From NCBI GenBank assembly GCA_963795855.1, contig CAWCIZ010000001.1:512001-576000 (forward strand): DNA of 64,000 bases. Direction: 5' to 3'. The DNA is from Vulcanimicrobiota bacterium. GTDB taxonomy: Bacteria > Vulcanimicrobiota > Vulcanimicrobiia > Vulcanimicrobiales > Vulcanimicrobiaceae. The notes under the pieces are model-generated. The model was not told where the DNA came from. It saw only the letters and a list, made by a program, of their open reading frames with translations, and made no database searches. Made by a program: the position numbers and the translations under genes. Shown in pieces: positions 261-3,680 of this stretch. The number at the start of each line of letters is the position of its first letter. The first letter of the stretch is position 1.

Positions 261-264
261 AACT

Positions 265-745
265 GCGGAGTACGCCTGTAAGCCGGATTCTGTCCCCCGG
301 CGTGTCGCCGGAGTGACGGCCATCTCTCTTGGCCGCGCGTTGCCGCGAGGCTCGATGCGACGTAGCTCGTTCGGACGGGCAGTCCGCTCCCTCGCCGAAG
401 CGGTGGAGATATCGAGCGGTCTTGCTTCAGGTGGGGTTTACCCGAGCGCACGTCACCGTGCGGCTCCGTGAGCTCTTACCTCACGATTTCACCCTTACCC
501 CAAATTGCTAGCGCAATTTGGGACCCCCGTCAGTTTAACAGGCACTCCGGTGCAAGCACCTGCGTGCCCCCCACACGCAAAGCGCGTGGGTCCCCCAGCG
601 GTCCCAAAAAAACGTTTAGCATTTGGGGCGGTATGTTTCTGTGGCACTTTCCTTCGAGTTTCCCCGACAGGACGTTATCCTGCACCCTGCCCTGTGAAGC
701 CCGGACTTTCCTCGCCTTGCGGCGCGGCCGTCCGGCGTACTCCGC
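265..745 (-). ncRNA. rnpB: RNase P RNA, type A, with extended P12
   Basis: Minus strand carries GAGGAAAGTCCGGGC, AGTGCCACAGAAA, GGTAAACCCCAC and ACAGAATCCGGCTTAC conserved regions; the ends GCGGAGTACGCC / GGCGTACTCCGC pair as P1. Confidence 0.97.
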
Positions 746-1144: not shown

Positions 1145-1987
1145 ATGATCCATGCGCTGCTTTTGGCCGCTCTGGGTGCCGTTCCGCCGTGTTGGGACGT
1201 CTTCGATGCTGCGCTGCGTCACAACGCAAACGGTGCGCATCCGCCGTACGTAACGTATAGCGAACGAATATCCGTAACTGAAGATCGCACTCCGCTCGTT
1301 TCGAGTATCGCGTATGTGGACTACCGCGACGACGGCGTTGCGCGCGTCATGGACGAGCGATTCAACTACGAACCATTCGTGACGCGTCATGCCGAACCGG
1401 GGCCGCCGGAATTGGGTCCGTATGGAACCAGGCGCGAAATGTGGCTGCCGGATGCCGGCGGCCTGCCGATCATCGCGCAGGTGCGAACGATGGGGGACGT
1501 GACGTGCACGATTGCCGATGAAGAGCCGTACAAGTCACACGAGACGTATCACTTGCATTTCAGCGGCGGACCGGCCACGCGGCCGTCGCTCAAAGACTTA
1601 TGGGTCGACACGAGAACGCGGGACATCTGGAAGCTCGAGATCACCGGTCCCGTCACGTTTTGGAGCGAAGGCAATCGCGATAACGAACTCGCGGAATTTC
1701 AAGTAGAGCTCGGCTATACCGGTCCATACCTGCTCGTGAATCATGTCGTGTGGGCGTACAGCCGCAGAGAGTATTCGCAGCGCGTCGACTATTTCGGCGA
1801 ATACACGTTCAGCGATTACGAATTTCCGGCGAAGATGCCGGCGTCGTTTTTCGGCAACGTGGCCGCAGCTTCCGATCTAGTTGCGAGCGGCCGTAAAAAA
1901 GCAGCCCCGCTTTCGCGGGGCTGCGGTATTGGTGGGCCATCCAAGGCTCGAACTTGGGACCTCATGCTTATCAAGCATGCGCTCTAA
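1145..1987 (+). CDS. hypothetical exported protein
   Basis: GGAGG RBS at 1132-1136; signal-like MIHALLLAALGA; the 3' end runs antisense into the tRNA-Ile terminator and gene, so the true stop may be earlier. Confidence 0.7.
   Translation: MIHALLLAALGAVPPCWDVFDAALRHNANGAHPPYVTYSERISVTEDRTPLVSSIAYVDYRDDGVARVMDERFNYEPFVTRHAEPGPPELGPYGTRREMWLPDAGGLPIIAQVRTMGDVTCTIADEEPYKSHETYHLHFSGGPATRPSLKDLWVDTRTRDIWKLEITGPVTFWSEGNRDNELAEFQVELGYTGPYLLVNHVVWAYSRREYSQRVDYFGEYTFSDYEFPAKMPASFFGNVAAASDLVASGRKKAAPLSRGCGIGGPSKARTWDLMLIKHAL
1895..1924 (-). terminator. intrinsic terminator after tRNA-Ile
   Basis: GCAGCCCCGC-GAAA-GCGGGGCTGC followed by T6 on the minus strand. Confidence 0.85.
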
Positions 1988-2006
1988 CCAACTGAGCTAA
2001 TGGCCC
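1930..2006 (-). tRNA. tRNA-Ile(GAT)
   Basis: GGGCCATTAGCTCAGTTGGTTAGAGC...TTGATAA...GTTCGAGCCTTGGATGGCCCACCA. Confidence 0.97.
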
Positions 2007-2060: not shown

Positions 2061-2273
2061 CTAGATCATAGCGATGTACTTCTTGAGCGCTTCGTCGTCG
2101 TCTTTGAGCTGGGCGAGCATCATGTCGCGCAGCACGTTGGCTTCGCGCTCGAGTTCCGCGCGTTCTTCCATCTCTCGATCGAACGTCGCTTGTTGCGCCG
2201 TGACGGCATCGTCGGCAGCCGGTTTGGCAGCACGCGCGGGCGTACGCGCTGCCATTTTCGTGCGATCGATCAC
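2061..2273 (-). CDS. small helical protein (70 aa), paralogous to the C-terminus of 2270-2647
   Basis: GTG start overlaps the upstream TGA (GTGA coupling); FD..M.E..E..RE.N.LRD...AQ.K.DD...KK.I..I motif. Confidence 0.8.
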   Translation of the reverse strand: MIDRTKMAARTPARAAKPAADDAVTAQQATFDREMEERAELEREANVLRDMMLAQLKDDDEALKKYIAMI

Positions 2274-2647
2274 TCGGTAATCGACTCGATGAATTTCTTG
2301 GTAATGGCGTCGTCGGCTTTGCGCTGCGCCATCTGAACGTCGCGAAGCGTGTTCACCTCGCGCATCTGCTCCGACTTCTCGTCCATCATCTCGTCAAACG
2401 CCTCGGATTGCACTTGCATCTGCTCTTGGTGCTGAATTTGCTCGGTGTACATGTAGAGTTGGAAGGCTTCGTCGCCGGCGTTAATCGCTCCGAGGCCGCC
2501 GTTTCCCAGCGCACCGGTCAAGTTTCCGGCCGTCGTGCCGCCCATCACGCCTCCGGCGAGCGCGCCGATGCCGGCCAGCAGCGGATTTCCCGTCATCGCG
2601 TACGTCTGCGCACCCATACCCAGCGCGGAACCGATATTCATTTGCAT
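2270..2647 (-). CDS. Gly-rich N-terminus / helical C-terminus protein (125 aa), unknown function
   Basis: Clean ORF in operon; TGNPLLAGIGALAGGVMGG segment followed by a Q/E/M-rich helix. Confidence 0.85.
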   Translation of the reverse strand: MQMNIGSALGMGAQTYAMTGNPLLAGIGALAGGVMGGTTAGNLTGALGNGGLGAINAGDEAFQLYMYTEQIQHQEQMQVQSEAFDEMMDEKSEQMREVNTLRDVQMAQRKADDAITKKFIESITE

Positions 2648-2656
2648 GGTGCGCGC

Positions 2657-2908
2657 CTATGCAGCGATCAGATCCGCATACGACGAGAGCGCGTTCACGT
2701 TCTGCTGCGCCGTCGGATTTTCGGCGCTGAGTTCGTCGAGAAGAGGGCTGAACGTGGGCACCGGCGTCGTTCCGCCCGACTGTGCGGACGAATTCGATAG
2801 CAACGCCATCGCGCCGGCGCCGGCTGCAACGACCGGGTTTGCCGTTTCGGCAAGGGTGAGAAGGCCGGTCGTCACGCCTTTGACGATGCCTCCGAGACTC
2901 AGGTGCAT
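2657..2908 (-). CDS. small protein (83 aa), unknown function
   Basis: AAGGAG RBS before ATG 2908; MHLSLGGIVKGVTTG...VNALSSYADLIAA. Confidence 0.8.
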   Translation of the reverse strand: MHLSLGGIVKGVTTGLLTLAETANPVVAAGAGAMALLSNSSAQSGGTTPVPTFSPLLDELSAENPTAQQNVNALSSYADLIAA

Positions 2909-2957
2909 ACGGTAACTCCTTAAAGTGAGATGCGCAGCGCTATCACGCCCGGCCGCG

Positions 2958-3620
2958 CTAGTTGCTAGATCCGTCCTGCGCAAAAACGATCGATCCGAAG
3001 TCCGGACTATTGTCGCGCGGACGGTTCGGATACGACTGCGGCAGTTCGCTCGGGCAAAGTGCGGGCGCAGGCACCTGAAGCGATGCAAATGACGAGAGTG
3101 CATTGACTGAGGCTTGTTCGTCTTGGCTATCCGCCGACAGCGCCTGCGTCAAAGTTTCCGGCGTGTCGCCTTGGAGGTCGGCGTAATGGCGAAGGACCGA
3201 GTCGGCGTAGCCGAGTCGTCGCCCGTCTTGCCACGACGTGATGGTCCCCGAGGCGTTCGGGTCGCCGGCATTGTACGCCGAAAGCGCCCTATGAACGTCG
3301 CCGCCGTAGCGTTTGAGTAGACCCGAGATCATCCCGGCGGCGTAGTCCGCATTCGATTGCGGATCCATTGCTGCCGCAGTAGTGGCGAAGGAATGGTAGC
3401 GATCGTCGATTTGGAAGATGCCGCGGCCATGGCCGCCGTCTCCGACGACGTTGCGGCCGGCATTGCTTCCCGGACCGCCGGTTTCTTGGGCGGCTACTGC
3501 CGCCAGGAGGGCCGGGTCTACGTGATACTTCCCTGCCGCGCTGGCGATTTCGGGCGCAAAGGCCACCCCGTGGAGCGCGAGCGAGCGGGCGGTCTGCGGG
3601 ATGCTCGTGACGATACTCAT
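2958..3620 (-). CDS. lytic transglycosylase (SLT domain) with C-terminal extension
   Basis: VDPALLAAVAAQET (catalytic Glu), GIFQI, ALSAYNAG motifs; no obvious Sec signal. Confidence 0.9.
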   Translation of the reverse strand: MSIVTSIPQTARSLALHGVAFAPEIASAAGKYHVDPALLAAVAAQETGGPGSNAGRNVVGDGGHGRGIFQIDDRYHSFATTAAAMDPQSNADYAAGMISGLLKRYGGDVHRALSAYNAGDPNASGTITSWQDGRRLGYADSVLRHYADLQGDTPETLTQALSADSQDEQASVNALSSFASLQVPAPALCPSELPQSYPNRPRDNSPDFGSIVFAQDGSSN

Positions 3621-3650
3621 GGTGCGGTACCGTCACGACGACAACGCCGT

Positions 3651-3680
3651 TTGACAATCCGCTTCCGGGGGGTCTACAAT
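3651..3680 (+). promoter_or_regulatory. sigma70-type promoter for the yceD-rpmF-fab operon
   Basis: TTGACA-N18-TACAAT. Confidence 0.75.

Follow-up and report, generated by a model that had tools for sequence, protein, structure and literature searches.

What would two small genes do together that overlap by four nucleotides and encode proteins ending in much the same helix? The pair lies near the start of the window, by which we mean the whole stretch of 64,000 nucleotides that was analysed, and the earlier note on this DNA had taken it for a co-polymerising major and minor subunit, or a heterodimer, comparable to a needle and inner-rod pair. The question turns on the following features.

2270..2647, minus strand: 125-aa gene (P0001), with a variable, Gly-rich N-terminal part and a near-invariant C-terminal helix; candidate major subunit
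2061..2273, minus strand: 70-aa paralogue (P0002), with a disordered Pro/Ala N-terminus and a single helix at residues 19-69; translationally coupled candidate for a minor subunit
2279..2401, minus strand: 41-codon motif in the 125-aa gene (residues 83-123), from the motif comparison
2064..2186, minus strand: 41-codon motif in the 70-aa gene (residues 30-70), from the same comparison
2270..2273, minus strand: GTGA stop/start overlap, seen in the sequence and kept in 60 of the 76 loci with both genes

The identity that the note had counted by hand is exact, namely 20 of 41 residues without a gap between residues 83-123 of the longer protein and 30-70 of the shorter one, and at the DNA level 75 of the 123 positions of the two motif copies agree. 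Among 20,000 shuffles that preserved composition, with offsets of 10 at most, the highest count was 13, and when the profiles of the two families (built from 61 and 56 sequences) were compared, the probability was 99.2% and the E-value 9e-20 over 60 columns. Judged by their sequences, the two proteins are paralogues; a search of the window's genome (G000) found no third copy of the motif. The proposed coupling holds as well, the stop codon of the first gene overlapping the GTG of the second at 2270-2273, and both genes can be considered real because the 70-aa gene follows the 125-aa gene in 76 of 80 related loci. Conservation of the motif among homologues, on which the paralogy claim had been staked, is borne out: 297 of the 331 Vulcanimicrobiia genomes have the 125-aa gene, and the C-terminal helix of the family is near-invariant.

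In the family alignments, the 125-aa proteins have a variable, Gly-rich N-terminal half and 45 near-invariant last residues, while the 70-aa proteins carry the same conserved helix behind a Pro/Ala-rich N-terminus of free length. AlphaFold predicts helices at residues 5-19, 22-35 and 43-124 of the 125-aa protein (pLDDT 73, pTM 0.26) and a single helix at 19-69 of the 70-aa protein (pLDDT 84, pTM 0.50). A Foldseek search with the 125-aa model gave no match, and VIA-align gave generic long helices only (Z up to 6.8). As to WXG100 proteins of the EsxA/EsxB kind, neither family alignment contains a W-x-G and no such Pfam match was obtained.

The pair belongs to an operon with a conserved order, in which a lytic transglycosylase gene is followed by an optional 83-aa gene, the 125-aa gene and the 70-aa gene, and a tRNA gene stands at its end.

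2958..3620, minus strand: lytic transglycosylase (SLT domain), 220 aa, heading the operon; PF01464, E 3e-11; upstream in 77 of 80 loci
2657..2908, minus strand: 83-aa protein (P0003), optional gene; N-terminus similar to the 125-aa family, C-terminus to the transglycosylase tail
1930..2006, minus strand: tRNA-Ile directly downstream of the 70-aa gene, followed by a terminator-like hairpin at 1901-1924

The N-terminus of the 83-aa protein matches the 125-aa family (A1 profile, E 0.014 within its own genome), and 13 of 25 positions are identical to residues 157-181 of the transglycosylase. A gene of this type is present in 19 of 80 loci, in four of them in the reading frame of the SLT gene. It would seem to be an old tandem duplication of the junction between the 125-aa gene and the transglycosylase; a trace of such a duplication was looked for at the DNA level, and none was found. 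Beyond the tRNA-Ile, the downstream flank holds an RNase P RNA (263-743, minus strand) among a group with three tRNA genes (820-895, 936-1009 and 1930-2006), together with a conserved-looking secreted protein that has no Pfam match (about 1145-1880, plus strand) and converges on the tRNA-Ile; the 298-aa open reading frame listed for it extends into that tRNA gene. A promoter-like two-box motif, CT(A/T)G(A/T)C ... CG(G/T)GA, occurs before the transglycosylase (3632-3659) and before the 83-aa gene (2942-2969, minus strand), and also before single-copy genes in family f3 of the class (L320-L341). With a crude matrix, the two sites of the operon rank 64th and 164th of 6,082. The motif is absent before the genes of the export cluster of G000 described below, and no promoter common to operon and cluster was found; G(G/A)TAACA failed as a guess at one, and a TTGACA/TACAAT site (3651-3680) is to be assigned to the divergent gene rather than to the operon.

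Across the 80 loci the operon is flanked by housekeeping genes, no export gene lies within 10 kb of it, and in G000 operon and export cluster are on different contigs. Such tight linkage to an SLT gene and none to export genes is what one would expect if the two proteins formed a coiled-coil heterodimer with no part in type III export and worked alongside the transglycosylase to remodel the envelope, in dormancy or in another conditional developmental programme, its co-presence with the export cluster merely reflecting that both are core genes of the class. We regard this alternative as unlikely, and part of the argument against it comes from distribution. Namely, at the one f2 locus that we read, the 125-aa/70-aa pair is present and the transglycosylase absent, and at four f3 loci a 97-aa gene stands with neither a 70-aa partner nor a transglycosylase beside it.

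The named relatives of the pair are Vulcanimicrobiota/Eremiobacterota. The 125-aa protein matches 301 of 401 genomes of the phylum, a tally that, like the others, includes up to nine unpublished genomes, on none of which any single claim rests. By family the matches number 266 of 296 in f1, 5 of 5 in f2 and 26 of 30 in f3. The 69 genomes of other classes gave three weak matches, and a profile of the 125-aa family (A2) run against 36 of the other-class genomes found weak N-terminal matches only. In f3 the gene is a single copy of 97 aa (24 of 27 genomes). The pair would therefore be a lineage-specific duplication in the ancestor of f1 and f2, since f3 has a single copy and other classes have one to nine near-identical copies of a counterpart, and a heterodimer would consequently not be an ancient requirement.

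To which kind of protein, then, is the pair related? Neither protein has a significant match in sequence searches of Pfam, NCBIfam or the PDB. Apart from the clusters of the two proteins themselves, the named clusters that the ESM Atlas displays are all type III filament subunits: HrpA at 0.87 (174 of 256 features) and an HrpE-like cluster at 0.83 for the 125-aa protein, and HrpE-like at 0.90, HrpA at 0.86 and needle F at 0.85 for the 70-aa protein. These matches are leads only, because the scores are mostly below 0.9, the recognition values of 2116 and 2175 lie below the 2300 mark, and the two queries are paralogous. They nonetheless speak against the coiled-coil alternative, the Atlas neighbours being filament subunits throughout. 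Among the Pfam matches of 117 members of both families there is no filament family; PF09589 (HrpA pilin) misses these genes in 41 genomes, its HMM cut-off not being reached, and the HrpE-like family PF28047 was compared via the ESM Atlas only. Against 21 Erwiniaceae-type HrpA sequences, hhalign gave the 125-aa family 5.7% and a score of 19.4, above 200 of 200 shuffles (maxima 17.1 and 18.8), and gave nothing for the 70-aa family. Hrp pilins are described as small and almost wholly helical, with divergent N-termini and little similarity between families, and the rhizobial NopA and NopB as a major and a minor component of one pilus (PMC3973906). Both proteins studied here have the dimensions and build of such pilins, being small (70-125 aa) and helical with a conserved C-terminus and a variable N-terminus. 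A gene position inside a type III cluster, in turn, is seen only for the putative homologue of other classes and not for the pair itself. If the Hrp-like reading is right, the pair would work like a Hrp pilin, yet it belongs to no pilin family by the tests run.

The needle and inner-rod analogy fares worse. An SctF protomer is a helix-loop-helix hairpin, and inner-rod proteins have a variable Pro/Ala N-terminus. Both of our low-pTM monomer models (0.26 and 0.50) show one long C-terminal helix with no hairpin, and PF09392, PF17001 and PF09487, models that do recognise real inner rods, match neither the pair nor any of the 117 family members. What would favour true SctF needle and SctI inner-rod orthologues is the needle F cluster in the Atlas results of the 70-aa protein, a cluster in which the family is annotated on 25% of the members, and the Pro/Ala-rich N-terminus, which recalls inner-rod proteins. 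With the single helix, the missing matches and, as seen below, the flagellar character of the export genes on the other side, we consider such orthology very improbable. Of the reading in the earlier note, the part that endures is the type III filament subunit, supported by context, that is, by the Atlas neighbours, a reduced export cluster and a positional counterpart in other classes; the likeness to needle and inner rod is not supported, in view of the lack of SctF/SctI matches, the long helix of the models and the single copy of f3. By analogy, the pair would stand closer to a major/minor pair of Hrp pilins.

Through which machine could such subunits be exported? G000 has two FlhA genes, one in a full flagellar region and the other, FlhA2, ending a compact cluster on contig C3.

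G000:C3:817691-831882 (L035:5691-19882): reduced export cluster, flagellum-like, near-universal in the class, kept without flagellin

This cluster comprises flgB-like, flgC, fliE, fliF (with a fused FliG piece), fliH, fliI, a transglycosylase, one FlgE/F/G-type gene, fliM-like, fliN, fliP/Q/R, flhB and flhA; an aspartyl protease gene and metF stand between these genes, and flhB is split over two frames in the G000 assembly. The cluster has no flagellin, hook, hook-junction or L/P-ring gene. FlhA2 is matched at E below 1e-200 in about 239 of 296 f1 genomes (a hand count) and in 5 of 5 f2 genomes, in many of them as the sole FlhA. No flagellin exceeded the cut-off in any of five genomes tested, and relatives without flagellin retain the reduced cluster; FlgI was found in one of nine genomes, namely G000 with its second, flagellar cluster, and in none of the eight others. 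In a 24-row FlhA tree, built without Myxococcal or chlamydial rows, the FlhA2 copies of f1, f2 and f3 form a clade (100/100) that is sister (100/99) to one FlhA of other classes, and the two together neighbour the flagellar FlhA of the phylum (87/91), with the four SctV rows standing apart. On the same 24 rows, a joint clade of FlhA2 and SctV is not rejected (p-AU 0.154), and a tree in which the copies of the class alone join SctV is rejected at the borderline (0.044). The FlhA2 clade coexists with a true flagellar FlhA in G000, G055 and G002. As a side observation, stand-alone partial FHIPEP genes (FlhA cytoplasmic domain) are numerous in other classes (G050, G002, G010 and G006), with 19 matches in G050.

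Against the models, FlhA2 scores 633 bits for FlhA and 511 for SctV, both under the cut-off, and FlhA, FliP, FliF and FliN score above their Sct counterparts, with the ATPase about even. An injectisome core would be of Sct type and without rod genes, and here FlgC, FliE, a FliG piece and a FlgE/F/G domain are present; a motility flagellum would have flagellin and a P-ring, neither of which is encoded in the cluster. This weighs further against SctF and SctI orthologues, both because flagellar models outscore Sct models and because flgB/C and fliE fill the role of an inner rod. Secretins, untyped and outside the clusters that we read, number one or two in each of five genomes, and no dedicated outer-membrane channel was identified. 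As for the distance between subunit and export genes, the f3 cluster is itself scattered, and such separation is therefore not unusual in the class.

In other classes, the orthologous cluster runs from flgB to flhA and includes a whole FliG and FliK. In four of the five other-class genomes that we read (G002, G003, G006 and G010), a Gln-rich helical gene of 79-113 aa lies 0.5-6 kb downstream of flhA; in G050 a different small Gln-rich open reading frame is found there.

L279:8202-8441, L282:9174-9413, L284:263-604, L283:990-1232 (loci L290-L318): small, Gln/Met-rich flhA-adjacent family of other classes, 77-113 aa

Members of the family were found in 30 of the 38 genomes of other classes, one to nine matches in each (two of the matches weak), often in tandem and near-identical, as bulk subunits often are. 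Its C-terminus, K-x-x-D-K-x-x-x-K-W-x-x-x-I, aligns with the 41-aa motif, best with that of f3. When the A2 profile was run over the 1,269 open reading frames of seven regions, the top three scores were small frames downstream of flhA. Comparison of the motif families with this family by hhalign gave 2-5%, within or barely above local-shuffle maxima, and in an anchored score the median member ranked about 16th of 3,600 G000 frame ends, a rank that is largely compositional, typical members reaching p 0.07-0.10 against composition shuffles. In a gapless register test, chosen after the sequences had been seen, the flush C-terminal register was best in six of six comparisons (permutation p 0.001-0.009 with six anchor columns removed). 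It is quite likely, from these alignments, that the flhA-adjacent family and the 125-aa/70-aa family are homologues, and the register match is one more point against a coiled-coil pair unconnected with export. Longer proteins near the flhA-adjacent genes carry a similar stretch. Separately, G015, from a bacterial family that lacks the flhA-adjacent gene in this survey, has three tandem 100-117-aa paralogues (L259:454-1851) with a Gly-rich N-terminus and a Gln-rich helix, possibly analogous subunits.

Would a link to this machine make the proteins filament subunits? All contextual evidence for export applies equally if the 125-aa protein were a small translocator or pore former and the 70-aa protein its partner or a chaperone-like plug. 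The Gly-rich helices 5-19 and 22-35 could form the helix pair of a translocator, and 2-3 of 61 members have scattered weak Pfam matches, the models being those for glycine-zipper proteins, C19orf12 and SctB2. The Gly-rich part is, however, the least conserved, being short or absent in f3 and many f1 members, whereas selection acts on the polar C-terminal helix, and the many near-identical copies of the flhA-adjacent family are those expected of a bulk subunit. Such a translocator is, in our judgement, improbable.

If the operon serves the export cluster, what becomes of it where the cluster is lost? In at least 12 f1 genomes the export genes have been deleted in place, with the flanks joined and the interspersed metF kept. 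Among these, G089 retains cluster fragments only and a 70-aa pseudogene only. In G192 the 70-aa gene contains two stop codons and the 125-aa gene is split, in G195 the transglycosylase gene contains a stop, G210 has lost about 20 residues of the helix in frame, and G107 shows a frameshift on the 5' side; in G043, Pro replaces Leu at a near-invariant position. Element insertions in the operon are seen in G173 and G300, and in the remaining four of 12 (G081, G124, G182 and G304) the operon has no clear break. Breaks other than insertions were counted in the 70-aa gene and the SLT gene, which had played no part in choosing the controls; they occur in 3 of 12 cluster-deleted genomes and in 1 of 35 controls (Fisher p 0.046). 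The genomes compared include kin, the controls come from the top P0001 hits, and the lone broken control is frameshifted in neighbouring genes too. Given kinship, assembly errors and control choice, the test lends mild support to a dependence of the operon on the cluster. The four intact operons count against strict dependence or mean recent loss; they also favour the coiled-coil alternative, against which stands G089, reduced to cluster fragments and just a 70-aa pseudogene. Twenty regions examined for such deletions comprise eight with deletion in place, six with flhA2 present or cut by a contig end, and six that were uninformative and left out. Several apparent cases were rejected. Most truncated 125-aa genes, which had looked like decay after cluster loss, are element insertions, many with an intact FlhA2; G160 has flhA2 at a contig end; the broken 70-aa gene of G173 is an insertion; and G385 has a frameshift in an otherwise whole locus. 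In G043, about 2.3 kb with a transposase-like frame lie between yceD and the transglycosylase, in the promoter region of the operon (L209:1630-3940).

The insertions themselves make the motif a hotspot for serine-integrase elements.

2309..2320, minus strand: insertion position, codons 110-113 (K-A-D-D) of the 125-aa gene; uninterrupted in the window, interrupted in relatives

In 16 genomes the 125-aa gene is interrupted inside the shared motif, and in G173 the 70-aa gene is interrupted at the equivalent codon, with the same element arm, which makes at least 17 interrupted genomes of 301, the set examined being those with a truncated or fragmented match. Where both ends lie on one contig, the inserts measure about 0.7, 7, 13, 14 and 19 kb, and the four adjacent frames that were tested are large serine recombinases. 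In three genomes, G175, G224 and G300, it is the tail of the target gene that closes the integrase frame. The elements use three sites in the conserved helix-coding DNA, and C-termini are swapped between integrase and target in several genomes (L214-L225, L229-L239, L166 and L206-L208). Seven interrupted genomes have an intact FlhA2, and the insertions therefore do not track cluster loss. They do mean that the gene is dispensable in at least part of a population, as conditional surface or developmental genes are. Serine integrases are known to interrupt sporulation and competence genes, and their targets are reported to be enriched in competence genes (PMC10083194); that the 125-aa gene is such a target would suit a coiled-coil protein of a developmental programme as well.

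Weighing all this, we believe that the two proteins are on balance probably paralogous export substrates, namely Hrp-pilin-like filament subunits of a second, flagellum-derived, non-motile type III apparatus. The subunit gene would have left the export cluster in Vulcanimicrobiia, been duplicated in tandem in f1/f2 and joined the transglycosylase. The subunits would pass through the export gate and assemble on a short rod, packing by their conserved C-terminal helices with the variable N-termini facing outwards; the transglycosylase would open the peptidoglycan. The 125-aa protein would be the major subunit and the coupled 70-aa protein a minor one (junction, cap or adaptor); that both enter one and the same filament is a tentative addition. 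Candidate roles of the filament are secretion conduit, adhesion and cell contact.

As a possibility rather than an expectation, one may go further and see here a phylum-wide, undescribed third kind of type III machine, in which flagellar gate, C-ring and rod are combined with a Hrp-like pilin in place of hook and flagellin, the pair being its major and minor pilins, silenced by integrase elements in some strains, and the whole either a second, independent change of the flagellum into a secretion pilus or, as a clade with SctV is not rejected, a living intermediate on the way to the injectisome. The steps from flagellum to injectisome are inferred rather than seen (PMC3459982); flagellar rod genes beside a pilin-type filament, if confirmed, would offer a testable intermediate or a parallel invention. 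The one cultured member of the phylum is reported to have pili, assigned to type IV, and no flagellin (PMC9758169). Our literature search found no description of the family or the cluster; subscription papers and supplements, such as those with the TXSSCAN tables (PMC9259500) or Table S8 (PMC9758169), may mention the cluster. Our reading, if true, would moreover explain what a core gene family of abundant soil bacteria does, and it would provide a natural set of serine-integrase target sites.

How does this compare with known systems? With the Hrp pilins (HrpA of Erwinia and Pseudomonas, HrpE and HrpY) and with NopA/NopB, the pair has in common small helical proteins and divergent N-termini, and these are its nearest named Atlas clusters. 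It differs in lacking HMM-level membership and in its host, a free-living soil phylum, and, unlike in Hrp systems, the export machine is flagellum-like with rod genes, has no SctC or SctD in the cluster and has its subunit genes at a distance within the class. With the bacterial flagellum, the reduced cluster shares homologues of FlhA, FlhB, FliP/Q/R, FliI/H, FliF, FliN/M, FliE and FlgB/C, but most of the genomes tested are without flagellin or FlgI, and FlhA2 forms a clade of its own. The type III systems of Myxococcales are likewise reduced, and PMC3459982 describes them as a conserved, vertically inherited, incomplete cluster with neither a secretin nor a recognisable needle. They lack FlgB/C, FliE and FliG according to the same source, whereas the cluster described here keeps them and has a proposed candidate filament subunit. 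Finally, serine-integrase elements are reported to interrupt genes such as sigK (skin) and spsM (SPbeta), besides competence genes. The likeness lies in a large serine recombinase acting at a conserved site within coding sequence; the difference is that the target here is an unnamed gene pair, both paralogues of which are struck at the same codon by elements of one family.
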